A stretch of DNA of 37,461 nucleotides. It comes from Chlorobiota bacterium. Its GTDB lineage: Bacteria; Bacteroidota; Bacteroidia; Flavobacteriales; Flavobacteriaceae. The notes under the pieces are model-generated. The model was not told the origin of the DNA. It saw only the letters and a program-made list of their open reading frames with translations, and made no database searches. Location: NCBI GenBank assembly GCA_013153655.1, contig JAADEB010000050.1, positions 1 through 37,461 of the forward strand, read 5' to 3'. The position numbers were made by a program, and so were the translations under genes. Shown here piece by piece: positions 1,948 to 21,451 of the stretch. Numbering within the stretch: position 1 is the first letter of the stretch; every line of letters starts with the position of its first letter.

Positions 1948-2403
1948 ATGAAAATACTCATAGGCACATATCAAGCCAAGCTCGACGGACACGGTCGTGT
2001 GATGATCCCCAAGGGGTTGCGCGACCAGTTGAAGGATATCGAAGACGAGGGATTCGTGCTTCGGCGTGCCACTTTTTTTGACAACTTGGAACTGCATCCG
2101 CGCAAGGAATGGGAAAGATGGATGGAAGAGCTTTTGAAGAAACCCAAAACCTCGCGCGACAAAGTTAAACTCATTTCCCTTATCAACGCCGGCGCCAGGC
2201 TGGTGAAACTGGACGGAAACGGTCGCCTCCAATTACCCAAAGACCTGATCAAGCAGATGGGTATGAGCAAAGAGGTGGTAATCGCATCCGAAGGCAATAT
2301 CCTCCAAATTTGGGACAAGGATGCCTACGAACGTTTCTGGGAAGAAAACAAGGAGGAATTCCCCGATTTGATGGAACGTTTATTGGACGACAGTGACGAA
2401 TAA
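1948..2403 (+). CDS. mraZ: transcriptional regulator MraZ
   Basis: The 151-aa product carries the duplicated MraZ/SpoVT-AbrB motif (LDGHGRVMIPKGLR and LDGNGRLQLPKDL). It is the first gene of the dcw cluster. Confidence 0.95.
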   Translation: MKILIGTYQAKLDGHGRVMIPKGLRDQLKDIEDEGFVLRRATFFDNLELHPRKEWERWMEELLKKPKTSRDKVKLISLINAGARLVKLDGNGRLQLPKDLIKQMGMSKEVVIASEGNILQIWDKDAYERFWEENKEEFPDLMERLLDDSDE

Positions 2404-3322
2404 AAATACCACATATCACACGCCGGTATTGCTTAGCGAAAGCATCGAAGCCTTAAACATCCGGCCGGACGGCGTTTATGTGGACGCCACCTTCGGCGGG
2501 GGTGGACATAGCCGTGCCATTCTGGAACGTTTGGGTCCGGAGGGCCGTCTGCTGGCTTTCGACCGCGACGAAGATGCCGCCACCAACAACATCGACGACC
2601 CGCGTTTCACCCTCATTCAGGCCGATTACGGCTATCTGAAAAATTACCTGCGTGCCCACGGCATTCGCCAAATCGACGGCTTGCTGGCCGACCTGGGTGT
2701 TTCGTCACATCAATTCGACACGGCCGAACGCGGATTCAGCACCCGCTTCGAAGGTCCGCTGGATATGCGCATGGACCGCACGCAAGAACTTACGGCCGAA
2801 CGCGTGGTGAATGAATACGGAGAAGAAGAATTGGCCCGCTTGTTTCGCCAATACGGCGAGCTGAAAAACGCCCGTTCGCTGGCCGCCGCCATTGTGCGCC
2901 ACCGTACCGAACGTCCCATTCGCACCACTGCGGCCCTGGCCGAAGCCGTTAAAGCGCATATGCCCGCCAAAAAACGAAATAAAATGATGGCGCAACTTTT
3001 CCAAGCCCTGCGCATCGAAGTAAACGGTGAATTGGAAAGCCTGAAACGATTGTTGGAACAAGCGGCACAAGTAATCCGTCCGGGAGGCAGACTGGCGGTC
3101 ATTACCTATCATTCCCTGGAAGACCGCTTGATGAAATATTTTATCCGAAGCGGCAATTTCGAGGACAAAATCGAAAAGGATTTCTACGGGAACTACCAAA
3201 CACCCTTCCGCAAAACAGGCAAACCCATAGTGCCCACGCCGGAAGAAATCGAAACGAATCCACGTGCAAGGAGTGCCAAATTGCGAATAGCCGAACGAAC
3301 CGAACATCCTTACAAACCGTAA
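2393..3322 (+). CDS. rsmH: 16S rRNA (cytosine1402-N4)-methyltransferase RsmH
   Basis: The product reads YHTPVLLSESIEAL...DATFGGGGHS...DLGVSSHQFD...SLEDR. The GTG start at 2393 overlaps the mraZ stop by 11 nt, and there is no in-frame ATG before the conserved HxPVL. Confidence 0.95.
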   Translation: MTNKNTTYHTPVLLSESIEALNIRPDGVYVDATFGGGGHSRAILERLGPEGRLLAFDRDEDAATNNIDDPRFTLIQADYGYLKNYLRAHGIRQIDGLLADLGVSSHQFDTAERGFSTRFEGPLDMRMDRTQELTAERVVNEYGEEELARLFRQYGELKNARSLAAAIVRHRTERPIRTTAALAEAVKAHMPAKKRNKMMAQLFQALRIEVNGELESLKRLLEQAAQVIRPGGRLAVITYHSLEDRLMKYFIRSGNFEDKIEKDFYGNYQTPFRKTGKPIVPTPEEIETNPRARSAKLRIAERTEHPYKP

Positions 3323-3324
3323 AA

Positions 3325-3636
3325 ATGAGATGGATCGTAGGCATATTGAGCATGGAGTGGTTCAGCGGCAAAAACGCCAAGCGAAATTGGAGCATTGCCC
3401 TGGCCGTGTTGCTTTACAGCATGTTCAGCATTTGGCTGGCACACCTGGGCGAACAAAAAGCCCGTGAATTGGCTCGCCTGAAAAAAGAAAACCGCAGGCT
3501 GAAAGCCGAATATGTGGAAACCAAAAAACTGCTAATGCAAGACCAATTGAGGTCTAATATTTACGAAAAACTGCGCGACAGGCAATTTGTGATCCCCAAG
3601 CGTCCGCCCCATATGATCGAAGTGAAAGAAAAATGA
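3325..3636 (+). CDS. ftsL: FtsL-like cell division protein (small bitopic membrane/coiled-coil protein)
   Basis: The 103-aa product has one hydrophobic helix (WSIALAVLLYSMFSIWLAHL) followed by a charged coiled-coil segment. It occupies the conserved slot between rsmH and ftsI, and its stop overlaps the ftsI ATG (ATGA). Confidence 0.7.
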   Translation: MRWIVGILSMEWFSGKNAKRNWSIALAVLLYSMFSIWLAHLGEQKARELARLKKENRRLKAEYVETKKLLMQDQLRSNIYEKLRDRQFVIPKRPPHMIEVKEK

Positions 3637-5384
3637 AAAAGAACGCGGCACGACATATCGACCAATGGAACTTGCTGTTGCATGCCCTGCTGGTTTTGTG
3701 GGGTGCGGCCATTGTGGTCAAACTGATTTACGTGCAATTTATCGACGGCAATCATTATCGCCAATTGGCACAGCGCTACATTCGGACGGTAAAAATCAAG
3801 GCCGGACGCGGGAATATTTTTACCCATGACGACAAGCTTTTGGCCGTTTCGGTAACCAAATACGACATCTATTTCGATGCCGTGGCACCGGTTGATAAAG
3901 TTTTTTACGGCGAAATCGATGCTTTGGCACGTAGCTTGGCCCGTTACACGTCAAAGCCTGCTTCGGAATGGAAAAGAAAACTGACCGAAGCGCGTAAAAA
4001 GGGACGCCGCTACGTGGCCATTGCCAAAGGATTGACCTTGCAGGATTACGAGAAGTTCAAAAAATTCCCCGTGTTCAAACACGGCCAGTTCAAAGGCGGG
4101 TTTATCACCGAGATCCGCACCATGCGCGAATATCCTTTCGGCGGCATGCTTCGCCGGACCATCGGCGTGGCATCCAACGGCCGAAAATACGGACTGGAAG
4201 GCGCCTACGACAAAATCCTTACCGGCACCGACGGCGAACGCCTGATGCAAAAAATCGGCGGTGGTACCTGGAAACCCGTGAATAATTTTAACGAAAAGGA
4301 ACCTGTACCCGGTAAGGACTTGGTCAGCACCATCGACATGCGGTTCCAGGATATTGCCTATCATGCATTGCTTACGCAACTGATGAACTACCGCGCCGAC
4401 CACGGAACGGTGGTAATCATGGAAACCGCCACGGGCAAAATCCGCGCCATGGTCAACCTGGGACGCACTTCCGGCGGTCATTATTTCGAAAAAATCAATT
4501 ATGCCGTGGCCGAACGCTACGAACCGGGATCCATCTTCAAGGCCTTTACCTTCCTCACCCTGCTGGAAGACGGCTATATCAAACCCGGCGATAAAATCCA
4601 CCTGGAAAGCAGTCGCTGGAAATACCTGGACCGCATCATCTCCGACGCGCATACTTTTCATAATATCGATTATACCATGGAAGAGGCCTTTGCCCACAGT
4701 TCCAACATCGCCACCGTGCAACTGACGGACAAATACTACGCCCGCCATCCGAAAAAATACGTGCAAGGCTTGGAACAACTGGGTATCGACAAAAAAACGG
4801 GAATCCGTCTGACCGGAGAAGCGGAACCCGTCTTTCCTCATCCGGGAGACAAAACCTGGAAGGGTTACAAACTGGGTATGATGTCGTTCGGTTACGGAGT
4901 GGAACTCACACCGCTACAAATCCTTACGGCCTACAACAGCATCGCCAACGGTGGCAAACGCCTGCGTCCCCTACTGGCCGAAAGCGTCAAGGAAGGACTG
5001 AAAACCGTAGAAACCTTTAAGCCGGAAGTGACCGATGCTTCGGTAGCCGATCCGGAAAACCTGGCAATCATTCGCCGCTTCATGCGCAAAGTGGTTACCG
5101 GCGGAACGGCCCGAAACGTGAATTCGCCTTATGTGGAGATTGCCGGAAAAACCGGTACCACCCAAACGGAATACTGGACGGGCAACACGCAATATATCGC
5201 TTCCTTTGCGGGCTTTTTTCCCTATGAAAAACCCTTGTACAGCATGATTGTGGTGATTCACAAACCCGACAAAAGCATCGGTTACTACGGCAACACCGTG
5301 GCGGGAACCGTCTTCCGCGAAATTGCCGAACAAATTATGGGTTTCACGCCCGACACCATCCAAATGGCTTTGAACGAAAAATGA
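3633..5384 (+). CDS. ftsI: penicillin-binding protein 3 / peptidoglycan D,D-transpeptidase FtsI
   Basis: The 583-aa product has an N-terminal TM helix and the class B PBP motifs SIFK (SxxK), SSN (SxN) and KTGTT (KTG). Confidence 0.93.
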   Translation: MKKNAARHIDQWNLLLHALLVLWGAAIVVKLIYVQFIDGNHYRQLAQRYIRTVKIKAGRGNIFTHDDKLLAVSVTKYDIYFDAVAPVDKVFYGEIDALARSLARYTSKPASEWKRKLTEARKKGRRYVAIAKGLTLQDYEKFKKFPVFKHGQFKGGFITEIRTMREYPFGGMLRRTIGVASNGRKYGLEGAYDKILTGTDGERLMQKIGGGTWKPVNNFNEKEPVPGKDLVSTIDMRFQDIAYHALLTQLMNYRADHGTVVIMETATGKIRAMVNLGRTSGGHYFEKINYAVAERYEPGSIFKAFTFLTLLEDGYIKPGDKIHLESSRWKYLDRIISDAHTFHNIDYTMEEAFAHSSNIATVQLTDKYYARHPKKYVQGLEQLGIDKKTGIRLTGEAEPVFPHPGDKTWKGYKLGMMSFGYGVELTPLQILTAYNSIANGGKRLRPLLAESVKEGLKTVETFKPEVTDASVADPENLAIIRRFMRKVVTGGTARNVNSPYVEIAGKTGTTQTEYWTGNTQYIASFAGFFPYEKPLYSMIVVIHKPDKSIGYYGNTVAGTVFREIAEQIMGFTPDTIQMALNEK

Positions 5385-6850
5385 AAACATACAGCGTAGC
5401 ACATATTATTCCGCTCTTGCAACCTTTGTCGGTTAAAGGCGACAAAGATCAAGCGTTTACGGGAATTCGCGACAATTCCCGCCAAACGGAAGCCGGCGAT
5501 TTGTTTGTGGCCGTGAAGGGCGCTCTCAGCGACGGACACCGCTACATCGGAGATGCCGTAAAACGCGGCGCTTCGGTGGTGGTGGCCGAACAAGAGGTCC
5601 CGGATTATCCGGGTATTACGGTCATCCGGGTAAAGGATTCGCAACTGGCGCGACGCCAATTGGCTCAATGGTTTTACGGCCGTCCCGACCGGGAACTCCA
5701 TATCACCGGCATAACGGGCACCAACGGCAAAACCACCGTTGCCACGCTACTTTTCGACCTGTTTGAATCCTTGGGATATCCTTCGGGATTAATTTCCACG
5801 GTGGAAATCCGCATGCATGACACCTATTTGCCCGCTTCCAACACCACGCCTGGCATTTTGGAGCTTTACCGCCTATTGCGCCAAATGGCCGACAGTGGCA
5901 TAGAACACGTATTTATGGAAATCAGTTCCCACGGCATCGATCAAGGACGCATCGAAGGCATCCGCTTCGGCGGCGGTATCTTCACCAATCTCAGCCGCGA
6001 TCATTTGGATTACCATAAGGATATGACCGAATATCGCGACACCAAGAAGAAATTTTTCGATATGTTGCCCGAAGAGGCCTTTGCCCTTACCAATGCCGAC
6101 GACCGCAACGGCTTGTTTATGCTTCAAAACACACGGGCGCGCAAAAAAACTTATGCCATTTTAAGACCGGCGGATTACAAGGCTTCCATACTGGAACAAA
6201 GCATCAACGGCATGCTCATGAGCATCAACGGCCGCCAATTCTACACCCCCATGACCGGCACTTACAATGCCTATAACCTTACGGCCGCCTACGGTGCCGC
6301 CCGCGAATGGGGATTGGAACCCGAGGAAATCCTTACGGCACTGAGCCGCCTCCGCGGCGCACCGGGACGCATGGAACGCATAACGGCTCACGATGGGAAA
6401 ACCGCCATAGTGGATTATGCCCATACCCCCGATGCCTTGGAAAACGTGCTCAAAACCCTGCGAAAAATATTGCCTCCGGGCAAACGCATCGTTACGGTGG
6501 TGGGAGCCGGCGGCAACCGCGATAAGGGGAAACGTCCCGTCATGGGCAAAACCGCCGCACTCCTAAGCGATTGGGTGATTCTCACTTCCGACAATCCGCG
6601 CGATGAAGATCCGCTGCAAATTCTTCGCGACATGACCGAAGGCATTCCGGAGGACCAGCAATTCAAAGTCATCACCATCCCCGATCGCGAACAGGCCATC
6701 AAAACCGGTATCATGTACATCGAGCCCGGTGATATCCTGTTGGTGGCAGGAAAAGGACACGAAGATTATCAAATCATCGGAAACGAAAAACGCCATTTTA
6801 GTGACAAGGAAACGATTATGAAATATTTTAACTCAACCCCTAACCGATAA
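5381..6850 (+). CDS. murE: UDP-N-acetylmuramoyl-L-alanyl-D-glutamate--2,6-diaminopimelate ligase
   Basis: The 489-aa product has the Mur ligase P-loop GTNGKT (nt 5717-5734) and the DNPR motif (TSDNPRDEDP) typical of meso-DAP-adding MurE. Its position in the dcw cluster fits. Confidence 0.93.
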   Translation: MKTYSVAHIIPLLQPLSVKGDKDQAFTGIRDNSRQTEAGDLFVAVKGALSDGHRYIGDAVKRGASVVVAEQEVPDYPGITVIRVKDSQLARRQLAQWFYGRPDRELHITGITGTNGKTTVATLLFDLFESLGYPSGLISTVEIRMHDTYLPASNTTPGILELYRLLRQMADSGIEHVFMEISSHGIDQGRIEGIRFGGGIFTNLSRDHLDYHKDMTEYRDTKKKFFDMLPEEAFALTNADDRNGLFMLQNTRARKKTYAILRPADYKASILEQSINGMLMSINGRQFYTPMTGTYNAYNLTAAYGAAREWGLEPEEILTALSRLRGAPGRMERITAHDGKTAIVDYAHTPDALENVLKTLRKILPPGKRIVTVVGAGGNRDKGKRPVMGKTAALLSDWVILTSDNPRDEDPLQILRDMTEGIPEDQQFKVITIPDREQAIKTGIMYIEPGDILLVAGKGHEDYQIIGNEKRHFSDKETIMKYFNSTPNR

Positions 6851-6853
6851 ACC

Positions 6854-8074
6854 ATGTTATACCATCTGTTTCAATATCTCAGCGCACATTTCGATTTTCC
6901 GGGCGAATCGCTATTCCGGTTTATCACATTCCGTTCGGCCATGGCTTTCATTACGGCTTTTCTGTTGGGTATTTTATACGGAAAACGCATCATCGGATGG
7001 CTACGCCGCCGTCAATTGGGCGAAACCGTGCGCGATCTGGGACTGGAAGGCCAAAAAAGCAAAGAAGGCACCCCCACCATGGGCGGTATCATCATCATCG
7101 GCGCCACATTGATTTCCATCTTATTGTATAACGACTTAACCAACATTTATATCCAAATTCTGATCCTGAGCCTGATATGGATGGGCCTTATCGGTTTTAT
7201 CGACGATTATATCAAAACGATTAAAAAAGATAAAACGGGCTTGCGCGGCAAATTTAAAGTAATGGGGCAAGTGGGTCTGGGTTTGATCATCGCCACCCTG
7301 ATATTTTTTCATCCCGACATAACCATTCGCACGAAAAAACACGGCGTAAAAGTTCAATCCACCGAGTTTCGCGAAGCCTTCAATCCCCCCAGGAAAAGCC
7401 TGCAAACCACCCTTCCCTTCTTTAAGAACAACGAATTCAATTACAAATGGCTCTTGCCCGCTTCGTTGCGTGATAATCAATGGGCACAATGGTTGCTGTT
7501 TACCGTAGTGGTTATATTCATCATCACGGCCGTGTCCAACGGCACCAACCTGGCCGACGGCATCGACGGATTGGCGGCCGGCACATCGGCCATCAGCATA
7601 GGCGCACTGGCGGTGTTGGCCTGGCTTTCGGGCAACATGTTTTTTGCCAATTACCTGAATATCATGTACATCCCGCACGTAGGAGAAATATCGGTTTTTC
7701 TGAGTGCTTTTCTGGGGGCCATTTTGGCTTTTCTGTGGTTCAATGCTTATCCCGCTTCCGTTTTTATGGGCGACACGGGAAGCCTGACCATAGGGGCCAT
7801 TATTGCGGTGATTTCATTTTTCATACGCAAAGAATTATTGCTCCCGGTGCTGGGTGGTATTTTCCTGATCGAAGCCGCATCGGTGATTATTCAAACCCGT
7901 TATTTCAAATACACCAAAAAGAAATACGGCGAAGGACGTCGCGTATTCCTGATGGCGCCCATCCATCATCATTTCCAAAAATTGGGTTTACATGAAAATA
8001 AAATCGTCATACGTTTTTGGATTGTGGCCATGCTTTTGGCCGTGACCAGTATTGCTTTACTCAAAATCAAATAG
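6854..8074 (+). CDS. mraY: phospho-N-acetylmuramoyl-pentapeptide transferase
   Basis: The 406-aa polytopic membrane protein carries GTPTMGG, IGFIDDYIK, NGTNLADGIDGLA, VFMGDTGSL and APIHHHF motifs. Confidence 0.95.
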   Translation: MLYHLFQYLSAHFDFPGESLFRFITFRSAMAFITAFLLGILYGKRIIGWLRRRQLGETVRDLGLEGQKSKEGTPTMGGIIIIGATLISILLYNDLTNIYIQILILSLIWMGLIGFIDDYIKTIKKDKTGLRGKFKVMGQVGLGLIIATLIFFHPDITIRTKKHGVKVQSTEFREAFNPPRKSLQTTLPFFKNNEFNYKWLLPASLRDNQWAQWLLFTVVVIFIITAVSNGTNLADGIDGLAAGTSAISIGALAVLAWLSGNMFFANYLNIMYIPHVGEISVFLSAFLGAILAFLWFNAYPASVFMGDTGSLTIGAIIAVISFFIRKELLLPVLGGIFLIEAASVIIQTRYFKYTKKKYGEGRRVFLMAPIHHHFQKLGLHENKIVIRFWIVAMLLAVTSIALLKIK

Positions 8075-8076
8075 AC

Positions 8077-8613
8077 ATGATAACGAAAAACACATATAAC
8101 AAAACACCCGGCGAATTGGCGGAAAAAATCCAACAAAAAGTAAGCCGTTACGGCTTGTTTAATCCCCGTTTGGAAATTTTCAAAAATCCGGTGCTTTCGC
8201 GCCGCATGGAAATCATAGCCGAAATCAACGGAGTGAAATTCATCAACGATTCGGCCGCAAGCAGCGTCAACGCCACCTATTACAGCCTCAACCGCCTCAA
8301 CGGAGAAGTGATTTGGATTGTGTGCAACGACCGTCCGGAAACCGCCTTCGAGGAATTGGCCACGGCCTTGGCCTTCAAAACCCGTCATATCATCGCCTGC
8401 GGAAAGGCCGCCGAGCGCTTGGAAAAACTCTTCGGCGCACGCATCCCCGTAACGCCCGCCCGCAACGCGGAACATGCCGTGAAATGGGCTTCGCGTATAG
8501 CCGTGGAAGGCGGTTATGTTTTGTTCTCACCGGCCTCACCCAACGACCGGTATGCCACGGAAAAACTTTCTTCCCGGTTTAAAAATGCCGTCAAAAAACT
8601 AAAAAATTCATGA
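8077..8613 (+). CDS. MurD C-terminal-domain-only protein (truncated/degenerate homolog of UDP-N-acetylmuramoylalanine--D-glutamate ligase; possible gene relic)
   Basis: The ATG at 8077 lies 3 nt after the mraY stop, and the TGA overlaps the ftsW ATG. The 178-aa product aligns by eye only to the last third of MurD ([18 protein letters not shown] vs [29 protein letters not shown] vs VLLSPACASLDQF). It has no N-terminal domain and no central P-loop domain. The track start at 8017 lies inside mraY. Confidence 0.75.
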   Translation: [178 protein letters not shown]

Positions 8614-9773
8614 TATCCTTTCCCGGACATATCACTCGCATGCAAAAATACGGTGACAAACCCCTGTTGGTTACCATTGCCATACTTACGGTCATTTCCT
8701 TTGCGGCCGCATTCAGTACCAGCAGCAACCTGGTCAATACCTACCGGCTGCACGACCCTTATTATTATTTGTTCAAACATTTTCTGTTGGTGGTAATCGC
8801 TTTGATTATATTTTTGGTTACCACGGCCGTTCCCTACCGGCTCTATCGCCGTTATGCTTATTTTATCATGGGGGGAACTTTGCTTTTATTGCTTTATACC
8901 GACCTCTTCGGTCAAGCCGCCGGCGGCGACGGGGCCCGCCGATGGATTCGTCTCGGCATTTTGAGCATCCAGCCGTCCATCATTGCCCTTACGGTCAGCC
9001 TGATTTTTACGGCCTCCTATTTGAGCCGCCAACAAAAACAGGAAACCCCTTTTAGCGAGGACCTGAAAAAATACTGGATATGGCTCTTCGCGCTCACGGG
9101 ATTGGTGGTCATCTACAACAACTCCACGGCCATCCTCATTTTCGGCCTTAATATGATTCTCCTTTTTCTGGGCGACTACGGATTCAAGAAAATTTTCTAT
9201 GCCATGGCCATGAGTCTGGTTTTGCTCATTGTTTATTTCCTGGCGGCCAAAGCTTTTCCGCAATATATCCCCAACCGTATCGATACGGCCGTCAAACGGG
9301 TAATGCGGTTCATGGACAAGGACGACAAGGACGAATTGGAGATACAGCCTCTTCGTGCCAAGATGGCCATCGCGTCGGGAAGGTTGTTTCGTTTCGCTCC
9401 CGGCAAGAGCGTTCAGAAAAACCTGCTTTCGCAATCTTCATCGGATTTTATCTATGCCATTTTGATTGAGGAATACGGCTTGGTGTTTGGCGGATTGGCG
9501 GTTTTGGCCTTGTACTTTATATTGGCGTTTCGCATCCTGGGAATTTCGCGAATGACGGAAAATTATTTCCGAAAAATTTTGGTCATTGCCGTGGGACTCC
9601 CCATTATTTTTCAAGCCTTGATCAACATGTCGGTGGCTTCGGGATTGATTCCCGTCACGGGTCAACCTTTACCCATCCTGAGTGCCGGCGGTACCACCCT
9701 TTTTATGACCGCCTTTGCCTTGGGTATTATCACTCATATCAGCATGCAAATACGAAAAGAACAACATGAATAA
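8610..9773 (+). CDS. ftsW: FtsW/RodA/SpoVE-family peptidoglycan glycosyltransferase (FtsW by position)
   Basis: The 387-aa multi-TM protein carries SEDS-family motifs (IQPSIIA, SDFIYAILIEEYGL, PVTGQPLPILSAGGT). It lies between the murD slot and murG. Confidence 0.9.
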   Translation: MISFPGHITRMQKYGDKPLLVTIAILTVISFAAAFSTSSNLVNTYRLHDPYYYLFKHFLLVVIALIIFLVTTAVPYRLYRRYAYFIMGGTLLLLLYTDLFGQAAGGDGARRWIRLGILSIQPSIIALTVSLIFTASYLSRQQKQETPFSEDLKKYWIWLFALTGLVVIYNNSTAILIFGLNMILLFLGDYGFKKIFYAMAMSLVLLIVYFLAAKAFPQYIPNRIDTAVKRVMRFMDKDDKDELEIQPLRAKMAIASGRLFRFAPGKSVQKNLLSQSSSDFIYAILIEEYGLVFGGLAVLALYFILAFRILGISRMTENYFRKILVIAVGLPIIFQALINMSVASGLIPVTGQPLPILSAGGTTLFMTAFALGIITHISMQIRKEQHE

Positions 9774-10869
9774 GAAGGTCGGCACATACAGCTTTTTGAT
9801 CAGCGGCGGCGGAACGGGCGGCCATATCTTTCCCGCCCTCAGCATTGCCCGCGAACTGGAAAAACAAACCGGTGGCGCACGTATTCATTTCGTTGGCGCT
9901 CGCGGCCGTATGGAGATGGAAAAAGTTCCCCAAGCCGGATACGAAATAACCGGCCTGCCCATTGCCGGCCTGCAACGCAAGAAATGGTGGAAAAACCTGG
10001 CCTTGCCTTTCAAGGTTATGGGAAGCCTGTGGGGTTCATACCGCTTGCTGAAACGTTTCTGTCCGGATGCGGTCATCGGCACGGGGGGATATGCTTCGCT
10101 TCCTTTGCTGTGGACTGCACAGCGCATGGGTATTCCCACTTATATTCAGGAACAAAATTCCTATCCCGGCATCAGCAACAAAATCCTGGGACGTAAGGCA
10201 CGCAAAATTTTTACCGCTTACGACGAAGCGGCGGCCTTTTTCGACAAAAACAAAATCGTCAAAACGGGCAATCCCGTGCGGGAAGATATCCGTGCGGAAC
10301 GTCAAGCTTCCCAAGAAGATTACAGCGGATTCGGTTTGCAGGCGGACAAACCCGTTATATTTATCACGGGCGGAAGCCTCGGGTCGGCGGCCATCAACCG
10401 GCGTATAGCAAAGTGGGTGGAGGAAGGCCTGCCGGAAAACCTGCAATTGCTTTGGCAAACCGGTAAACTTTACTACGATCGCTACCGTTCCCTGGAATCG
10501 GACAAAGTGCGCATCATGCCCTTTATTAAGGATATGAACAAGGCCTACACGGTGGCCGACATCATCGTGTCGCGTGCCGGAGCCGGAACCTTGTCGGAAT
10601 TGGCCTTGGTGGGCAAACCCGTCATACTGATTCCTTCGCCCAATGTGGCCGAGGATCATCAAACCAAGAACGCCCGTGCCTTCGAACGGCAACAGGCGGC
10701 CATTCTCTTGCCCGAAAAAGACTTGGAAGCGCTTCCCAAACGTATAGCGGAACTCATTGCCGACAAGGAGCTCCGTCAACGCTTGTCGGAGAATCTGGCC
10801 AAAGCGGCCAGGCCCGGCGCCACGGCCCGCATTGTGGAAACCATACTAAACGACCTGAAACAAGCATGA
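9766..10869 (+). CDS. murG: undecaprenyldiphospho-muramoylpentapeptide beta-N-acetylglucosaminyltransferase
   Basis: The ATG at 9766 gives MNKKVGTYSFLISGGGTGGHIFPALS (MurG G-loop) and overlaps the ftsW stop by 8 nt. The C-terminal motifs SRAGAGTLSELA and HQTKNA are present. The track start at 9715 is an upstream extension inside ftsW. Confidence 0.93.
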   Translation: MNKKVGTYSFLISGGGTGGHIFPALSIARELEKQTGGARIHFVGARGRMEMEKVPQAGYEITGLPIAGLQRKKWWKNLALPFKVMGSLWGSYRLLKRFCPDAVIGTGGYASLPLLWTAQRMGIPTYIQEQNSYPGISNKILGRKARKIFTAYDEAAAFFDKNKIVKTGNPVREDIRAERQASQEDYSGFGLQADKPVIFITGGSLGSAAINRRIAKWVEEGLPENLQLLWQTGKLYYDRYRSLESDKVRIMPFIKDMNKAYTVADIIVSRAGAGTLSELALVGKPVILIPSPNVAEDHQTKNARAFERQQAAILLPEKDLEALPKRIAELIADKELRQRLSENLAKAARPGATARIVETILNDLKQA

Positions 10870-11594
10870 AACAACGCCTGCAACATATCATGATTTTCAC
10901 GGCCGCCGCCATGCTGGTGTCGCTCATGGGTTGGAGTGCGCATACGGCCTGGAAGAAAGCCGTAAAAAAGGTGGGGCCGGAAGCGGAAATCGGTATTTTG
11001 CCTAAGGACAAACATTATATCCTGAAAAGAGATATTATGAATATTGTCCGGCAAACTTCCACTGCCGAAAAAGACAAAGACATACATGCTTACCTGAAAC
11101 ACCTGGAAAACAGGCTTGAAAATCATCCCCTCATCACCCGTGCGGATGTGTGGTTTACACCGGACGGAAAAATCCATATTCGCGCCTATCAAATCGAACC
11201 CATTGCGCTGGCCGAAACCTCCGGCGGATGGAAATACTTGACCCGCGAAGGAGAAATGGCACCCGTGTCGCCCTACCAAAAAACCGTTTTGCCTAAAATC
11301 AAGGGCGTGGGCGAAGCGGAAGAAATAAAAAAACTTTACCCGCTCATGGAATATATCTACACCCGTCCTTCCTTGCGAAATGCCGTCAAAAGCCTTCGTT
11401 ACGACGGCCGGAAATGGTGGCTTTATGCCTACACGCTGCCGGTGCCCGCCATCTTGGGCGACACCACCGGTTTCCGGGAAAAACTCTATAAATACCGTGT
11501 GATTTCATCCTATTTACACGCCCAAAAATCCTATCCCTATACGGGAATCGACCTTAGATACAAAAATCAAATCGTTTGTAGCAAAAACCTCTAA
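10866..11594 (+). CDS. ftsQ: cell division protein FtsQ (POTRA-domain, bitopic)
   Basis: The 242-aa product has a single N-terminal TM helix (IMIFTAAAMLVSLMGW). It lies immediately upstream of ftsA-ftsZ, and its ATG overlaps the murG TGA. Confidence 0.75.
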   Translation: MKQRLQHIMIFTAAAMLVSLMGWSAHTAWKKAVKKVGPEAEIGILPKDKHYILKRDIMNIVRQTSTAEKDKDIHAYLKHLENRLENHPLITRADVWFTPDGKIHIRAYQIEPIALAETSGGWKYLTREGEMAPVSPYQKTVLPKIKGVGEAEEIKKLYPLMEYIYTRPSLRNAVKSLRYDGRKWWLYAYTLPVPAILGDTTGFREKLYKYRVISSYLHAQKSYPYTGIDLRYKNQIVCSKNL

Positions 11595-11604
11595 ACCCAT
11601 CGCC

Positions 11605-13005
11605 ATGACAGAACAACAAGCGCCCATGCAGGAAAAGAAAAAACTCACCGTAGCCCTCGATGTGGGAACCACCAAAGTGGTGGCCGTGGCCGGCTACCTG
11701 GACGAGCACGGCAAAATCAAAGTGGCAGATTATGCCATTTTGCAAAATACGGGTATGGTCCAAGGGGAAATTTTCAATCTGATGGAAACTTCCCAAGCCA
11801 TCAAACACGTGATTAACGAACTCTCGGAAAAAATCCATCAGGATATCACCCATGTGACGGTGGGAATTTCCGGCGATCATATCCAAACCATTTATACCCG
11901 GGATTATATCATTCGCGACAATCCCGAAGAATTGATCATGGAAACGGATATCGAAAAACTCACCCAACGCGCCAGCCAATCCATCACCTTGGAAGACCAA
12001 GCCGAAATTCTGGAAATCATTCCGCAAGGTTATTTTATCGACAACAAATTGGTCAACGGGTCGCCCGTGGGTACCATCGGCAAGAGGTTCGAGGGATCAT
12101 TCCTCGTTATTCTGGGCAAAACCAAGAAAATCAGCAAATTGGCGCGAAGTATCAAAATGGCGGGACTGGAAATCGAAGATATTTTCCTGCAACCCATTGC
12201 CTCGGCACGGGCGGTATTGAAAAAACCGCAATGCAATTTGGGCGTGGTCTTGATTGACATCGGCGGCGGTACCACCGACATCCTGATTTGCAACAAGGGC
12301 GCCATTCGCTTTACGGGCATCATCCCTTCGGGCGGCGATTATCTTACCGAGGAAATCTACAAACATTTTCATATCGAACCCAAAACGGCCGAAAGCATCA
12401 AGCTTAAATACGGCTCCACCATGCTCAACTCCGAAGACCGCAAAAAAGTGTATCGCATCAATTTGGAATGGTCCATTCATCCTTTTGAATTCAAACTGGA
12501 AACCCTATCGAACCTGATACGGGTGAAACTGGACCTGATTGCTTCGCAAATTGAAAAATTCATTCAGGAATACCAAAGCTTTTTCCCCGGCGAAATCATT
12601 TCCCAAGGCATCGTGATTACGGGAGGCGGATCCCAATTGAAAAATATGGTGCAATACATGCAATACAAATTGGGAACGGATGTGTATTTGGGCAAACCGG
12701 GCATGCTGCTGGCTCCTTCCAAAACTTCGGAAAAATTGTCAAAACCCCAATTTTCCACCGTCATCGGATTGCTCCAAATGGCCTTGGAGAAAAACGATGC
12801 GGAAACCGCCCTTTTCGACCGGGAAAAACAGGAAAAACCTCAACGCAACAACTTTGTTCCCAAATCCGAAGTCCATGCGGAAACCTCCGGACCGGAAGAC
12901 AAGACGGAAGAAACCTCCTATGAAGAGGAAAGCAAAAAGAAAAGCATTTTCAGCATACTGAACAAAATTTTCGGCAAAACCATCGACGAAGCCAACAAAA
13001 ACTAA
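11605..13005 (+). CDS. ftsA: cell division protein FtsA
   Basis: The 466-aa product has the actin-fold motifs ALDVGTTKVVAV, IDIGGGTTDI and VITGGGSQL. A C-terminal amphipathic helix (KKKSIFSILNKIFGKTI) follows a disordered linker. Confidence 0.93.
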   Translation: MTEQQAPMQEKKKLTVALDVGTTKVVAVAGYLDEHGKIKVADYAILQNTGMVQGEIFNLMETSQAIKHVINELSEKIHQDITHVTVGISGDHIQTIYTRDYIIRDNPEELIMETDIEKLTQRASQSITLEDQAEILEIIPQGYFIDNKLVNGSPVGTIGKRFEGSFLVILGKTKKISKLARSIKMAGLEIEDIFLQPIASARAVLKKPQCNLGVVLIDIGGGTTDILICNKGAIRFTGIIPSGGDYLTEEIYKHFHIEPKTAESIKLKYGSTMLNSEDRKKVYRINLEWSIHPFEFKLETLSNLIRVKLDLIASQIEKFIQEYQSFFPGEIISQGIVITGGGSQLKNMVQYMQYKLGTDVYLGKPGMLLAPSKTSEKLSKPQFSTVIGLLQMALEKNDAETALFDREKQEKPQRNNFVPKSEVHAETSGPEDKTEETSYEEESKKKSIFSILNKIFGKTIDEANKN

Positions 13006-13010
13006 AAGCC

Positions 13011-14951
13011 ATGATCTCAGGAACCGACATCGTAACCTTCAAGGATTTGAAGACCCAAATTTCCAAGCTCATAAAAGTGATCGGCGTAGGCGGCGCCGGC
13101 ACCAATGCCGTGAACTACATGTTTTCCAAAGACCCTTTGGATCAAGTGGAATATATCGTCTGCAACACGGACGCACAGGCACTCAAAGCCAGCCCCGTTC
13201 CCCGTAAAATCCAAATCGGTAAGAGCCTGACCAAAGGCTTGGGGGCCGGCAGCAATCCCAGTATCGGCCAACAAGCGGCGGAAGAAGACATGAACGAAAT
13301 CCGCGACATGCTGTCGAAAAATACGAAGATGGTGTTTATCACAGCCGGGCTGGGCGGCGGAACCGGAACGGGTGCGGCTCCCGAAATCGCCAAGTTGGCC
13401 AACGAATTGGGATTGCTCACCGTGGCCGTGGTGACCAAACCTTTCGAATACGAAGGCGAACGCCGCAGAAAACAAGCGGAAAAAGGCTTGGAAAAGATCA
13501 AGAAATATGTGGATTCGCTCATTGTGATTAACAATGAAAAAATCATCGAAGTGTATGGCGATTTGGGCTGGAAAGAAGCCTTTTCCAAATCCGATGAAGT
13601 GCTGAGCAATGCCGTCAGGAGTGTTACCAAGGTGATTACCGACAATTACGAAATCAACGTGGACTTTAATGATGTGGAAGCCGTTCTGAAAAAAAGCGGT
13701 ACCGCCCTGATTGCTTCGGCCGAAGCCCAGGGAGCCAACCGTGCCACCGAGGTGGTCCGCAAAGTGCTGGATTCGCCGCTTTTGGAAGAAAACCACATCC
13801 AGGGCGCCAAAGACCTGCTCCTGCTTATCCTTTCCGGAGAAGACCAAATCACGGTAAACGAAATTTCCCGCATCAACAAAGACCTTAAAAAAGCCGCACA
13901 AAATCCCCAACTCAATATTATTCAAGGACTGGGCGAAGTGCCGTCGCTGGGAAATAAAATTTCCGTTACCATCATTGCCACCGGTTTCGAACAATCGGGT
14001 GAAAACAAGGAACAAACCCTCGAAGAAGACGGGAAAATTATCGTAGTTACCTCGCCGGATCAACCCGTGATCATCGATATGCCGGAACAGGATTTCGATG
14101 AAGCGGACGAAGATTTGGCGACGGAACAACCTGCCGGAGAACGGGAACAACCGGAGACCGGCAAAGAACAAGAAGAAACCGTCACCGCCACTTCCGAGGA
14201 CGCTCCGGACGACGTAGAAAAAGAATGGACCTTGTTCTATAACGAACAAAAGAATGCCTCACCCGTTATGACGAATGAGGAAGCCGGCTCCTCACAACCC
14301 GGCGAAAAAAGCAACACGGCGGCCGAAGAAAAAGAGGAATCCCCCGCGGCATCTCCCGCAAGCGTAGCCCATGACCCGGCGGATACCGAAAACGATGCCA
14401 CACTCCCTACCCAACCCGAATGGGACCATATCGAAGACCAAGCCGATCCCGTGGATAATATGGAAAAAACCTCCGTGGTACAACCCGGCCTCTTCGACAA
14501 CCTGGAAGCCGCGGCAGAACACGGGAATGAAAACACCGGCCCGAAAGAAACCGCCTCTGAAAACGCTACGGCCGAAAACCAAAACGACCCGCTTCCCGGG
14601 AACGACCGGGAAGAAAAAATCCTGATCGAAGAAGAACTCACAGAATCCGCCGAAGACGATATGATGCACGACCTGATGCTCAAACGCATGCAATCCGATG
14701 CCACCGCCTCCGAACCCGTTTCGTCCGGAACGGCAAGCAAACCGGCCGAACCCCCCACCATGGAAAAAAGGCTTCACCGCACAGAAAACATCCTGGAAAA
14801 ACAACGTTTGAAAAAATTCATGTACAAATTCCAAAAAAACTTCGCCGGACCCGTCATTCCGGGACATAATAAACCCACGCAAATCAATCTTAATTCCCCT
14901 CGCCGTCCTTGGGACGAAGACGAAAGCTATTTGAACCAAAAATTCGATTAA
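13011..14951 (+). CDS. ftsZ: cell division GTPase FtsZ with about 260-aa acidic disordered linker
   Basis: The tubulin signature GGGTGTGAAP, the motifs VIGVGGAGTNAVN and NTDAQAL are present. The globular core ends near aa 325 and is followed by an E/D/P/T-rich low-complexity region and a conserved basic C-terminal segment. Confidence 0.95.
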   Translation: MISGTDIVTFKDLKTQISKLIKVIGVGGAGTNAVNYMFSKDPLDQVEYIVCNTDAQALKASPVPRKIQIGKSLTKGLGAGSNPSIGQQAAEEDMNEIRDMLSKNTKMVFITAGLGGGTGTGAAPEIAKLANELGLLTVAVVTKPFEYEGERRRKQAEKGLEKIKKYVDSLIVINNEKIIEVYGDLGWKEAFSKSDEVLSNAVRSVTKVITDNYEINVDFNDVEAVLKKSGTALIASAEAQGANRATEVVRKVLDSPLLEENHIQGAKDLLLLILSGEDQITVNEISRINKDLKKAAQNPQLNIIQGLGEVPSLGNKISVTIIATGFEQSGENKEQTLEEDGKIIVVTSPDQPVIIDMPEQDFDEADEDLATEQPAGEREQPETGKEQEETVTATSEDAPDDVEKEWTLFYNEQKNASPVMTNEEAGSSQPGEKSNTAAEEKEESPAASPASVAHDPADTENDATLPTQPEWDHIEDQADPVDNMEKTSVVQPGLFDNLEAAAEHGNENTGPKETASENATAENQNDPLPGNDREEKILIEEELTESAEDDMMHDLMLKRMQSDATASEPVSSGTASKPAEPPTMEKRLHRTENILEKQRLKKFMYKFQKNFAGPVIPGHNKPTQINLNSPRRPWDEDESYLNQKFD

Positions 14952-16388: not shown

Positions 16389-18533
16389 TTATTCTATCAA
16401 CACCTTCCGGGTAGCGGTATTGCCTTGCCGGTCTTGAAGCTTCAAGAAATAGATGCCGGGAACGAATCCTTCCGTGGACAAAACGCGCGATCCTTCGATG
16501 ATACCTTGTTCCAACACCTTGCCGTCGGGATTATACCATTGGTAGGTTCCTTCATCCAAACCTTCCACATATATCGAATTTTTCGCCGGATTGGGATAAA
16601 TCTTTATCCCGTCCATGAATGCGCCGGCCACAAACACCGCATCACACTGGTTTTGATCGGCCACAAAATGAGAAGTGGAATCTATGGCTTGGGAATAATG
16701 CTGCTCCCACCATGCCGGTTCGTCCACAAAAATACAGGTCAAATCCGGACAATTCCGGCCGTTAAATTCCATTAATGCACTCCCGTCCACATGATACATG
16801 AATACATTGGATAGTGAATCGTTATGGGAAAAATCAATCCTTCTCAGCATGGTATTGTGACTCAAATCCAGTGATTGCAATTGTGTACGGCTTGCATAAA
16901 TCCATTGCAAGGAAGGATTGGTGGACAAATCGATTTGTCTTATGGGATTGCCGCTTATCGTCACTTCAAACAAACCCGTTTGGTGGGTTAAATCCAAAGA
17001 AGTCAAGCGGTTGTTTCGAACCCCGATCCGGTATAAACGGGTCAACCGGCTTATATCCAGCGTGTCGATCCTATTATTTCCCACAAACAAATAAACAAGC
17101 CTATTATTATTTTGTAAATTCAATGAATCAATCAGGTTATTATAGCAAGATAGATAAAATAATGCGGGATTTTGGGATATATCAAGGGAAGTAATTTGAT
17201 TTTGCCATATCACCAGCCTTTGCAAGTTGGGATTCCTGCGCGTATCCAAGGCGCTCAGTTGATTATTGTAAGCACGTAAATCTTGAAGAAAATATTGATG
17301 AGAAACATCGATGGAATCCAATTGGTTGGAAGCCACATTCAATTGGCTAAGTGCATAAAAATCCTCGATTCCCGTCAAGTCCGAAATACCTCTTCCGGAA
17401 ACATCCAGTGCGGTTACCGTGTCGATGGCCAATGTGGGTACCCTGTGATCCTGCGGAATATCGTCATAGGGGGACAAGGCCGCTTCGAACAAAGAATCCG
17501 GTATGGCCGTGTAGGTGGTATCCGTGGTATATAAAACCACATTGTCCAACCACAGCAAGCCGGGTTGGGTATCATAGGGCGTTCCGGAAATCCGCCAAAT
17601 TAGGCGGTGCGAAGTTCGCGGATCGAATTGCCATTCAAAATGGCGCCAACAGGTGGAGGTATCTTCGTCAAAAACGGCCACCCCCACGCTATCCACCAAG
17701 AACCGCATATATTTATGGGTTTCGGAAGTGTATTTTATGTCAAAGGCCACCTTAACGGCATTTTGTACGTCCCAAACGATGCTTGCTTCCTCATGTACGG
17801 GCGCTTCGGCATGAAGCGACATAAAAGATTGCGTTGCATCATCGGATGTTACTTCCCACAGGGACGGGTTTCCGATGATCTGCCAGTCCGGCGGCATTTG
17901 TCCGTCTTCGAATCCATGTCGAACAATGCCGTGAATTTCCGCTTCACGGTCAACGGGTTGTGCATTTTCCAGCATCACCTCACGCAGGACAAAAAAAGAG
18001 CGGTTGCCTCCGTAATTATCGTTAAAACCGATGATAATATCGGTGGAAGCCAACAAATCCCAACGCCGGCTAACGGAATAATCCCTTTGATAGATAACTT
18101 GTCCGCCGTTGTAAGCATAATTATGCTTGGCAATCCGGAAATGTGCCGTAGAATCGGATGAATGGAAAGACAGGCTGATATACAAAGTATCCCCGTGCCT
18201 AAAGCCTTGCATCTGACGGATATTGGCAGCCCCGGCCACTACACTGCTGCCGGCATAAAAATTGGCATAATCCCAGGGCAAGAAAATCAAACTAATGGAA
18301 AGGCGCGCATCATGCGTTAGATCAAAAAACGATTTGGAATGAATATTGGCGCCAATACGATTACCGGAACCGTAAACATACAAGCCGTTGGATTCCTGCC
18401 GGACTTGGCCGCATTGCATATTATCCCATTCACCCGTAGTAGGAGGAATGAAAATGGTGTCGGATTGAGCATATAGAATACCGCTAAAAATCCAAAGAAA
18501 CACCATGAACGGATAAAGATGAGTGGTTTTCAT
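16389..18533 (-). CDS. secreted leucine-rich-repeat protein with T9SS C-terminal sorting domain
   Basis: The ATG at 18533 gives the signal peptide MKTTHLYPFMVFLWIFSGILYAQS. The upstream GTG at 18551 would lie inside the -7 box. An uncharacterised N-terminal region of about 345 aa is followed by about ten 21-22-aa LRR units of the xLxxLDxSxNxxLxxL type (nt about 16797-17420). The C-terminal IKIYPNPAKNSIYVEG...GIYFLKLQDRQGNTATRKVLIE (nt about 16392-16616) is a typical Por secretion tail. Confidence 0.85.
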   Translation of the reverse strand: MKTTHLYPFMVFLWIFSGILYAQSDTIFIPPTTGEWDNMQCGQVRQESNGLYVYGSGNRIGANIHSKSFFDLTHDARLSISLIFLPWDYANFYAGSSVVAGAANIRQMQGFRHGDTLYISLSFHSSDSTAHFRIAKHNYAYNGGQVIYQRDYSVSRRWDLLASTDIIIGFNDNYGGNRSFFVLREVMLENAQPVDREAEIHGIVRHGFEDGQMPPDWQIIGNPSLWEVTSDDATQSFMSLHAEAPVHEEASIVWDVQNAVKVAFDIKYTSETHKYMRFLVDSVGVAVFDEDTSTCWRHFEWQFDPRTSHRLIWRISGTPYDTQPGLLWLDNVVLYTTDTTYTAIPDSLFEAALSPYDDIPQDHRVPTLAIDTVTALDVSGRGISDLTGIEDFYALSQLNVASNQLDSIDVSHQYFLQDLRAYNNQLSALDTRRNPNLQRLVIWQNQITSLDISQNPALFYLSCYNNLIDSLNLQNNNRLVYLFVGNNRIDTLDISRLTRLYRIGVRNNRLTSLDLTHQTGLFEVTISGNPIRQIDLSTNPSLQWIYASRTQLQSLDLSHNTMLRRIDFSHNDSLSNVFMYHVDGSALMEFNGRNCPDLTCIFVDEPAWWEQHYSQAIDSTSHFVADQNQCDAVFVAGAFMDGIKIYPNPAKNSIYVEGLDEGTYQWYNPDGKVLEQGIIEGSRVLSTEGFVPGIYFLKLQDRQGNTATRKVLIE

Positions 18534-18550
18534 AAGGCTAAGGTTTTTCA

Positions 18551-18558
18551 CAAAATTA
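18551..18558 (-). promoter_or_regulatory. Bacteroidota-type -7 box for LRR gene
   Basis: The plus-strand CAAAATTA reads TAATTTTG on the minus strand, 18 nt upstream of the ATG at 18533. Confidence 0.45.
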
Positions 18559-19396: not shown

Positions 19397-19453
19397 ATGA
19401 AAATCTTTAAAATTAATTTTCATTCGTATGTAATCAAAACACGTGCCACAGAC

Positions 19454-19488
19454 AAAAAAAGAAAACCGCCTCAAATCCGGGCGGTTTT
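19454..19488 (-). terminator. Rho-independent terminator of eno
   Basis: On the minus strand the sequence reads AAAACCGCC-CGGATTTGA-GGCGGTTTT followed by CTTTTTTTG. It lies 24 nt after the enolase stop. Confidence 0.8.
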
Positions 19489-19511
19489 CCAAATTTATGA
19501 TTCAAAGAATT

Positions 19512-20804
19512 TTACATCTTATGCTTAAAGGCTTTAAGACCTGGATACACACCCATGGGATCCAAATATTCCTCGATTCGAAGCAATTGATTGTATTTGG
19601 CCATCCGGTCGGTACGCGAAAGGGAACCTGTTTTGATTTGGCCGGTATTCAAGGCAACGGCCAAATCCGAAATGGTGGTATCTTCGGTCTCACCCGAACG
19701 GTGGGAAATAATGGCGGCATAGCCGGCCTTGTGGGCCATATTGATGGCTTCGATGGTTTCGGTAAGGGTACCTATTTGGTTCAATTTGATCAAAATGGCG
19801 TTGGCAATACCTTCGCGAATACCTTTTTCCAGGATTTTGGTATTGGTCACGAAAACGTCGTCGCCCACCAACTGAACTTGTTTACCCAAACGTTCGGTGA
19901 GCATTTTCCAGCCTTCCCAATCGTCTTCGGCCATGCCGTCTTCAATGGAAATAATGGGATATTTGGATACCAACTGGGCCAGATAAGCCACTTGATCGCC
20001 GGGGGAAAGTTTCATGCCTTTGTCACCTTCGAAAATGGTGTAGTCGTAAACGCCGTTTTTATAAAATTCCGAAGCGGCCACGTCCAAAGCCAGGAAAAAG
20101 TCTTCACCGGGCTTGTAACCTTGTGCTTTGATGGCTTCCAGAATGGTTTCGATGGCATCCTCGGTACCGTCGAAAGCCGGCGCAAATCCTCCTTCATCGC
20201 CCACGGAGGTGGTCAGGCCGCGTCGTTTCAAAATCTTTTTGAGCGTATGGAAGACCTCGGTGGCCATTTGCATGGCATGCGAAAAACTCTCGGCACCGGC
20301 CGGCACAATCATAAATTCCTGAAATGCGATGGGCGCATCGGAATGGGAACCGCCGTTAACGATGTTCATCATAGGCACGGGCAATGTGCGTGCACCCACG
20401 CCTCCCATGTATTGGTAAAGATGCAATCCCAACTCGTCGGCCGCCGCTTTGGCCACGGCCAGGGAAACACCCAGAATGGCATTGGCACCCAATTTGGATT
20501 TATTTTCCGTGCCGTCCAGATCCAACATCACTTGGTCGATGAGTACTTGATCATATACATGAGCTCCGGTAAGGGCCGGTGCAATGAATTTCTGTACGTT
20601 TTCCACGGCTTTGAGCACCGATTTTCCATGAAATTCCTCGAATCCGTCGCGCAATTCCAAGGCTTCCTTGCTACCGGTGGATGCACCCGAAGGCACGGCG
20701 GCACGTCCGAAACCGCCCAAGTCGGTCCATACTTCCACTTCCACGGTGGGATTTCCCCGCGAATCGAAAATCTGACGGGCATGAATTTTTTCTATTTTTC
20801 CCAT
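19512..20804 (-). CDS. eno: enolase (phosphopyruvate hydratase)
   Basis: The 430-aa product reads [25 protein letters not shown]...[18 protein letters not shown]..., a canonical enolase sequence. Confidence 0.97.
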
Positions 20805-20905
20805 TGTTCAAAATTTTTTGGGGACAATATATCATATAAAAGAAAAAAACCACCTGTTGAAAGGCAGTTTTTTTCATGAATTTTCGAGGGACGACCGAAG
20901 AAGGA

Positions 20906-21430
20906 TTATTCCTTTGTTTCTTCGGCGTTACCCTTATCGCCGGATTCTTCACCGGCTTGATCCTGCACGTCTTGATTTTGTTGGGGTGCTTCCTGTACGC
21001 CTTGATCCTGTGCTTTGGATTTGCGGCGTCGGCGGCGTGTTTTCTTGGCCGGCTTACCGGAAGTGTAGGTGGTGTTGTAATCCACAAACTCGATGAGGGC
21101 CATTTCGGCATTGTCACCGAGGCGGTTACCGAGTTTGATGATACGCAAATAACCTCCCGGACGATCGGCCACTTTTTCGGAAATATTGCGGAACAATTCC
21201 GTGACCGAATGTTTATTGTTCAAGGCGCGGAACACCATACGTCGGTTGTGCATGGTGTCTTCCTTGGAGCGCGTTACCAACGGTTCCAGGAACATACGCA
21301 ATGCTTTGGCCTTGGCCAGCGTGGTATGAATCCGTTTATGCTCGATCAACGAATTGGCCATATTGCGCAACATCGCCTTACGATGTCCGGCCTTCCGTCC
21401 CAAATGATTAAATTTCTTTCTGTGTCTCAT
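20906..21430 (-). CDS. rplQ: 50S ribosomal protein L17 (with charged C-terminal extension)
   Basis: The product begins [45 protein letters not shown]. It is the last gene of the alpha operon. A C-terminal tail of about 50 aa is rich in K/R, then Q/E/D. Confidence 0.95.
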
Positions 21431-21451
21431 AATTTTCGTTTCTTAAATTCC

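Follow-up and report, generated by a model that had tools for sequence, protein, structure and literature searches.

A stand-alone MurD C-terminal domain encoded just before ftsW in the dcw cluster of uncultured Bacteroidota

We analyzed a stretch of 37,461 nucleotides (from here on, the window), positions 1 to 37,461 of contig JAADEB010000050.1 in assembly GCA_013153655.1. It carries a dcw cluster of the Bacteroidota type, from mraZ through ftsZ, in which an ORF that we refer to as mini-MurD lies between mraY and ftsW. Few bacterial gene clusters are as thoroughly studied or as highly conserved as the dcw cluster. The features are as follows.

1948-2403: mraZ
2393-3322: rsmH
3325-3636: ftsL
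3633-5384: ftsI
5381-6850, forward strand: murE (NF001126, 573 bits, cut-off 373), intact, with all three Pfam domains (N, M and C)
6854-8074, forward strand: mraY (TIGR00445, 306.7 bits), the upstream neighbour of mini-MurD
8077-8613, forward strand: mini-MurD ORF, 178 amino acids plus stop (PF02875, and TIGR01087 at positions 303-427 only)
8077-8199, forward strand: N-terminal leader of mini-MurD, residues 1-41, which align with the final strand and helix of the central domain of full-length MurD
8200-8535, forward strand: fold of Mur_ligase_C (MurD domain 3), residues 42-153 (Pfam, AF2 and Foldseek)
8610-8613, forward strand: ATGA overlap of the mini-MurD stop and the ftsW start, read from the sequence
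8610-9773, forward strand: ftsW, SEDS family (PF01098, E 1.5e-59; TIGR02614, 239 bits), the downstream neighbour
9766-10869, forward strand: murG (TIGR01133, 297.8 bits), ATG at 9766
10866-11594: ftsQ
11605-13005: ftsA
13011-14951: ftsZ

Pfam and NCBIfam identify the surrounding mraY, ftsW, murG, murE, ftsI, ftsQ, ftsA and ftsZ as genuine. The mraY stop (TAG) occupies 8072-8074 and the ATG of mini-MurD follows 2 nt further on, at 8077, while its TGA (8611-8613) overlaps the ftsW ATG at 8610; the interval between mraY and ftsW measures 535 nt. The original prediction had placed in the murD slot only a 178-residue ORF of the MurD C-terminal domain, and coordinates, Pfam and NCBIfam all agree. 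It had also held that the coupling to ftsW was preserved. Actually, the ATGA junction is kept in all five clade members that were checked (the window, L001, L005, L006 and L094), and an A-rich tract lies 15-20 nt 5' of the ftsW ATG in members of the clade.

The cluster lacks a second ligase gene. The murG stop overlaps the ftsQ ATG (ATGA, 10866-10869) with no murC between them, its usual location in Bacteroidota, and tblastn with a MurC query found nothing anywhere in the 37-kb window. A full-length murD was found neither in the cluster nor anywhere else in these 37 kb. The original prediction had thus described the murD slot correctly and overlooked the missing murC. The murG/ftsQ junction without murC is found also in L001-L006, L094, L101-L103, L011 and L008, and murC is absent from distant relatives too, wherever the contig reaches murG and ftsQ. 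At L008 murC is absent, yet the full-length murD is still there, indicating that the departure of murC from the cluster does not require a mini-MurD. The intact and constrained murE, mraY, ftsW, ftsI and murG point to a pathway in use, for which the cell has to have MurD activity, and we infer that the genome carries genes for catalytic MurD and MurC at another place.

The sole Pfam match of mini-MurD is Mur_ligase_C (PF02875), over residues 42-153 (35.7 bits against a cut-off of 28.4), and its sole NCBIfam match is the murD model TIGR01087, covered at positions 303-427 of 441 (E 9.2e-25). On this model it scores 87.6 bits, below the cut-off of 211.95 for a MurD ligase. Pfam found in it neither the UDP-binding Rossmann-like domain MurD_N (PF21377/PF21799), which is present in the full-length MurD next to the mini-MurD of L088 and L092, nor the central ATP-binding domain PF08245. 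The P-loop G..GK[ST] was not found in the ORF either; murE, by contrast, has GTNGKT at 5717-5734. A profile of mini-MurD and its orthologues matched only MurD chains in the PDB, at residues ~298-437. The AF2 model has a mean pLDDT of 79.7, with a core at 80-96 and parts above 90, and its best 33 Foldseek matches are all MurD (4buc, E 4e-10; 7u35_C, rmsd 2.4 over 140 columns). All this upholds what the original prediction had read from the letters: homology to MurD domain 3 only (TIGR01087 303-427, PF02875 and Foldseek all point to MurD) and no Rossmann-like N domain, ATP-binding domain or P-loop (Pfam and motif search). The domain search and the structural comparison that it had proposed gave Mur_ligase_C only, hence no unrelated family of ~180 residues, and a model that superposes on MurD domain 3. 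In the leader, aligned to full-length MurD, the adenine-binding HN..N motif is no longer recognisable. AF2 models this part at pLDDT 36-53 with a single predicted helix at residues 13-25, and L14, A15, F28, P30, L32, I34 and F35 are invariant in five close orthologues.

The motifs of domain 3 are altered as well. Against PDB MurD chains and 59 full-length Bacteroidota MurD, mini-MurD has DSAASS for DSKATN and CNDRP for GGxDK, the degradation already pointed out in the original prediction. Using E. coli numbering and D-Glu contacts from the literature (T321, K348, S415, L416 and F422), R302 and D317 are kept (R43 and D58), while K319 is A60, T321 is S62, K348 is P87, S415 is N156, L416 is D157 and L409 is F150; position 422 holds a non-aromatic residue. 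The D-Glu-contact positions vary even among close orthologues of the window ORF. We extended the comparison to the C-terminal regions of the 59 full-length proteins and of 46 mini-MurDs. K319, T321, N322, G344, G345, D346, L409, S415, F416, D417, R425 and G426 are invariant in 59/59 full-length proteins and mostly replaced or variable in the mini-MurDs, although those found in tandem with a complete murD retain T321, S415, R425 and G426. K348, a lysine in 58/59 full-length proteins, is lost in 43/46 mini-MurDs, and the leucine at 409 has become F or Y in 41/46. On the other side D317 (D in 59/59) is kept in 46/46 and R302 (R in 59/59) in 39/46; we take these two to be superfamily-invariant domain-3 residues facing ATP. 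To judge from these residues, the D-Glu pocket is gone from mini-MurD and the equivalents of R302 and D317 remain. Because the UDP-binding domain, the ATP-binding domain and the D-Glu-contact residues are all missing, mini-MurD would be unable to ligate; the original prediction had likewise denied that the ORF alone could be a Mur ligase, and the missing N and M domains, P-loop and D-Glu residues agree with it. A Cys/His site (C83, H104 and C108) was considered because the three residues are invariant in the close clade, and rejected because more distant proteins of the subfamily have W, V or I instead.

A homologue search returned five more clusters of 177-198 residues with 55-97% identity to mini-MurD, and every contig carrying a member has the order mraY-mini-MurD-ftsW-murG-ftsQ. 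The carriers are NCBI MAGs (GCA_054036075.1 and GCA_054035435.1), JGI 3300005095 and 3300026531, ENA ERZ27262658 and Logan SRR33939667. The layout is unchanged in more distant carriers, namely P0007 in GCA_027023475.1 (MraY 79% identical to that of the window), P0011 (MraY 83% over the partial gene on the contig) and six JGI contigs reaching down to 74% for MraY, 50% for FtsW and 53% for FtsI. A deeper lineage, P0090 (MraY 57%), has a mini-MurD in the same layout. Overall, an intact frame of 177-184 codons is found in at least 12 independent assemblies with MraY identities of 74-100%, and FtsW identity falls to 50-60% in the most distant of these relatives.

Among the five closest loci we found one single-codon indel, in frame, and 65 of the 178 positions are invariant; conservation along the ORF is highest in the folded core. 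The dN/dS values (NG86) of mini-MurD in these five loci were 0.09-0.25 with dS above 1, compared with 0.09-0.23 for murE, similar values for rsmH and lower ones for mraY (0.03-0.07). For the distant pair formed by the window and L094 the value was 0.45, with dS saturated. Within the window clade mini-MurD diverges much faster than its neighbours (53-61% identity vs 87-94% for MraY). As estimated from these codon comparisons, the purifying selection on mini-MurD is real but moderate. We rejected the idea that the ORF conceals an element acting at the level of DNA or RNA: in the clade comparison there was no excess identity at synonymous sites along the ORF, and this lack of extra constraint indicates that selection acts on the protein. 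The comparison of relatives suggested in the original prediction hence shows the slot content intact and dN/dS well below 1. As a separate observation, in the closest pair (the window and L003:10061-10597) mini-MurD has 6 amino acid differences in 178 with a dS of 0.165, compared to 0 of 406 in MraY (dS 0.029) and 3 of 489 in MurE (dS 0.024); this local excess of divergence is possibly due to recombination.

The architecture is not restricted to this clade. A MraY-seeded scan of GTDB gave 80 Bacteroidota loci, most of them with a murD of 425-470 residues in the slot. In three of them the slot holds only an ORF of 176-182 residues: L011, a Flavobacteriaceae MAG in which murC is absent too, and L065 and L085, Bacteroidales MAGs in which murC is present. 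In another three (L050, L074 and L079) a full-length murD is followed by a mini-MurD and then by ftsW, and the same tandem, with the order mraY-murD-mini-MurD-ftsW-murG-murC, appeared on looking up the context in GCA_009612815.1 and GCA_041391825.1 (L088 and L092). P0197, an abundant lineage of Bacteroidales with entries in 223 collection blocks, is slot-only as well. Altogether, slot-only loci are L011, L065, L085, L090, L094 and L096-L103, and tandem loci are L050, L074, L079, L088 and L092. A scan of the GTDB representatives with the mini-MurD profile found no relative, and the most similar MraY among the species representatives of GTDB r232 is 61% identical to that of the window. As NCBI nevertheless has several MAGs of the window clade, the lineage appears to be missing from the GTDB representative set.

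An exhaustive HMMER search gave 6479 matches, the top 150 strongly enriched in proteins of ~155-200 residues. With a profile of 30 mini-MurDs we obtained 266 clusters at E<=1e-10; the best 120 of them are all 132-242 residues long, 116 falling within 160-190. Within single clusters the same length is found again on as many as 50 contigs, which measure up to 147 kb. The named examples among the listed clusters are all MAGs of Flavobacteriales or Bacteroidales, and all carriers of a mini-MurD are uncultured MAGs. The dN/dS was 0.068 in the Bacteroidales form, in which mini-MurD is 84% identical vs 51% for FtsW, and 0.25 in the tandem form. We therefore define, provisionally, a mini-MurD family of proteins of 160-190 residues consisting of a MurD C-domain plus a short leader and encoded directly upstream of ftsW. 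In every locus looked at, members adjoin ftsW, either alone in the murD slot or after murD. The ORF of the window has the length (178 residues), the architecture and the position before ftsW, together with the family signature: K348 lost (P87), GGxDK degraded (CNDRP), F150 at L409 and D58 kept. No Pfam or NCBIfam model separates the family from MurD, and a full-text literature search found no description of stand-alone MurD C-domain genes. The fold and the ancestry are known; what is new, to our knowledge, is a stand-alone, catalytically dead protein of this kind that recurs and keeps to one place before ftsW.

Two minor findings concern the same part of the cluster in other loci. In Flavobacterium-type loci a gene of 123-127 residues lies between murD and ftsW (L042:8582-8953, L051:8589-8963 and L046:5330-5713), and in L042 and L046 it matches the '23S rRNA-intervening sequence protein' (PF05635). 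At L092:5938-7402 (GCA_041391825.1) murE appears as two overlapping ORFs, of 343 (N and M domains) and 155 residues (C domain). The cause could be a frameshift, a sequencing error or a genuine division of a Mur ligase at the same domain boundary.

The first residue of the mini-MurDs of L011, L065, L085 and the P0197 type coincides with an internal Met of full-length MurD, present in 51 of 56 of these proteins, and a decayed LALxGKHNxxNxMAA motif still follows it. The mini-MurDs of the window clade start within ~4 residues of this Met, and those of tandem Flavobacteriales ~20 residues later. In full-length genes, the 18 nt upstream of the internal Met have A 0.50 and GC 0.27 (0.35 and 0.38 gene-wide), like true starts, but a control Met 17 codons downstream is similar. 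The conserved Met may be a natural start, giving a free MurD C-domain protein also in ordinary Bacteroidota. In neighbor-joining trees (Kimura distances) all mini-MurDs form long branches outside a tight cluster of full-length MurD, a pattern that an old paralogue or long-branch attraction could each produce. The mini-MurD of L011 is nearest to full-length MurD of Flavobacteriaceae, which makes at least this one a separate and younger truncation.

We consider it most probable (roughly 60%) that mini-MurD is a real gene under purifying selection, coding for a stand-alone and catalytically dead MurD domain 3 with a degenerate central-domain tail of ~40 residues, which acts by binding while the catalytic MurD is encoded elsewhere. 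The coexistence of mini-MurDs with a complete murD in L050, L074, L079, L088 and L092 indicates a role distinct from MurD catalysis. The original prediction had offered, as an alternative, a retained and repurposed stand-alone C domain; that part fits the evidence, and what it did not foresee was that members of the family coexist with full-length murD. Mini-MurD would be expressed, its synthesis translationally coupled to that of FtsW, and would work through binding, without catalysis. It could be an accessory or scaffolding subunit keeping the contact of the MurD C-terminus with FtsW, MraY, MurG or other Mur ligases. Or else it could be a mimic of domain 3 docking on the central domain of a Mur ligase, with R302 and D317, on the ATP side, retained. 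The choice of partner is a guess. The invariable adjacency to ftsW, the conserved ATGA and the published MurD-FtsW chimeras suggest that it acts where lipid II and FtsW meet.

Known systems give partial parallels. With MurD (EC 6.3.2.9, UDP-MurNAc-L-Ala:D-Glu ligase; TIGR01087) mini-MurD shares the domain-3 homology, the fold (rmsd 2.4-2.5 over 140 columns), the place between mraY and ftsW and R302/D317; unlike MurD, it has no domains 1 and 2 and no P-loop, its D-Glu residues are replaced, L409 is F, and its score is 87.6 vs 211.95 bits. A precedent is PAP11, the plant MurE-like subunit of the plastid-encoded RNA polymerase (8ras_Q and 8w9z_N), a Mur-ligase homologue repurposed as a non-catalytic structural subunit. 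These structures are among the Foldseek matches of the mini-MurD model (E ~2-4e-4), although PAP11 is a eukaryotic protein derived from MurE that still has its multi-domain body and is part of an unrelated complex. MurT of the MurT/GatD lipid II amidotransferase (6h5e and 6gs2) also has a Mur-ligase fold, works only with a partner and is a weak Foldseek match (E 3e-5). It differs in keeping the ATP-binding central domain, in being catalytic and in having DUF1727 as its C-terminal domain instead of MurD domain 3. Finally, natural MurD-FtsW chimeras have been reported (Shirakawa et al., 2023, PMC10214165), in which the C-terminal end of MurD is joined to FtsW, much as mini-MurD is a MurD C-domain directly before ftsW and coupled to it; the chimeras, however, are covalent fusions of a complete and presumably active MurD, and mini-MurD is a separate polypeptide without catalytic domains.

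Among the other explanations, a split MurD would have its N-terminal and central domains on a separate polypeptide encoded elsewhere, mini-MurD supplying domain 3 in trans to form an active ligase for D-Glu or another substrate. In MurD, domain 3 is a rigid body that closes onto domains 1 and 2. Such a split would also agree with the ATP-contacting D317 and R302 being kept in 46/46 and 39/46 mini-MurDs and with the absence of a full-length murD from the cluster and the 37-kb window. Still, we find it unlikely. The D-Glu contacts (T321, K348, S415, L/F416 and F422) are all replaced and vary among close orthologues, and five lineages pair a mini-MurD with a complete murD that needs no domain in trans; both facts argue against a split enzyme. 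Besides, no partner with only the N and M domains appeared in the window or within 10 kb on either side of any related locus. It is quite improbable, too, that the slot-only lineages have no canonical three-domain MurD at all and make UDP-MurNAc-L-Ala-D-Glu by a non-canonical route in which mini-MurD would be a required trans-acting module or adaptor.

Very improbable, in our opinion, is that the frame is kept open only for ribosomes to reach the ftsW start, by coupling or avoidance of polarity, its protein having no function. Bacteroidota generally lack Shine-Dalgarno-led initiation, which would go well with such a spacer, as would the ATGA overlap in 5/5 clade members and the A-rich stretch before the ftsW ATG. 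But coupling requires an open frame and no particular amino acid sequence, and yet 65 of 178 positions are invariant with dS saturated. Conservation is highest in the folded core, the dN/dS is 0.07-0.25, and there is no excess of synonymous constraint. Moreover, the domain is kept in the tandem lineages, where murD itself could provide the coupling.

A decaying relic of a recent 0.8-kb deletion in murD, the first reading of the original prediction, has to be given up almost entirely. In its favour, the ORF is shorter than any functional MurD, its catalytic motifs have decayed and it diverges more quickly than the genes around it. Against this, it is intact and of nearly constant length in at least 12 assemblies with MraY at 74-100%, including relatives at 74-79%, its dN/dS (0.09-0.25) is well below 1, and AF2 predicts its fold with confidence (core above 90). 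No frame disruption was seen in any mini-MurD orthologue, so the gene does not look like a pseudogene. As to a collapsed or chimeric contig that has lost the 5' 0.8 kb of murD, the source is indeed a metagenomic contig, but the identical architecture in independent NCBI, ENA, JGI and Logan assemblies from different samples makes the chance of an artefact negligible.

If mini-MurD is indeed a recurrent, selected and catalytically dead Mur-ligase domain beside ftsW, it would be a new component of the dcw cluster. It would suggest a second, non-enzymatic job of the MurD C-domain, for example contact with the SEDS polymerase FtsW or with an assembly of Mur proteins, MraY and MurG, and one worth keeping even with the enzyme encoded elsewhere. 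It would also open a concrete way to test an old idea, namely that in peptidoglycan synthesis the steps in the cytoplasm are physically linked to those at the membrane. On the practical side, mini-MurDs are named 'hypothetical protein' or 'cyanophycin synthetase' by NCBI and 'UDP-N-acetylmuramoylalanine--D-glutamate ligase' by IMG, and because of such names metabolic reconstructions of the MAGs that carry them may wrongly score MurD as present.

Some other features of the window were observed along the way. FtsZ (13011-14951) has 646 residues, a length conserved in the clade (622-646 residues); beyond its GTPase and C-terminal Pfam domains, which reach to about residue 327, it has a tail of ~320 residues. 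Two forward-strand ORFs, 19443-20879 (478 residues) and 20876-22303 (475 residues), gave no match in Pfam and are antisense to the genes for enolase (19512-20804, reverse strand) and rpoA (21452-22447, reverse strand); they are probably spurious shadow ORFs. On the reverse strand, 16389-18551 codes for a leucine-rich-repeat protein of 720 residues with a C-terminal T9SS sorting domain (Por_Secre_tail), consistent with an origin in Bacteroidota.
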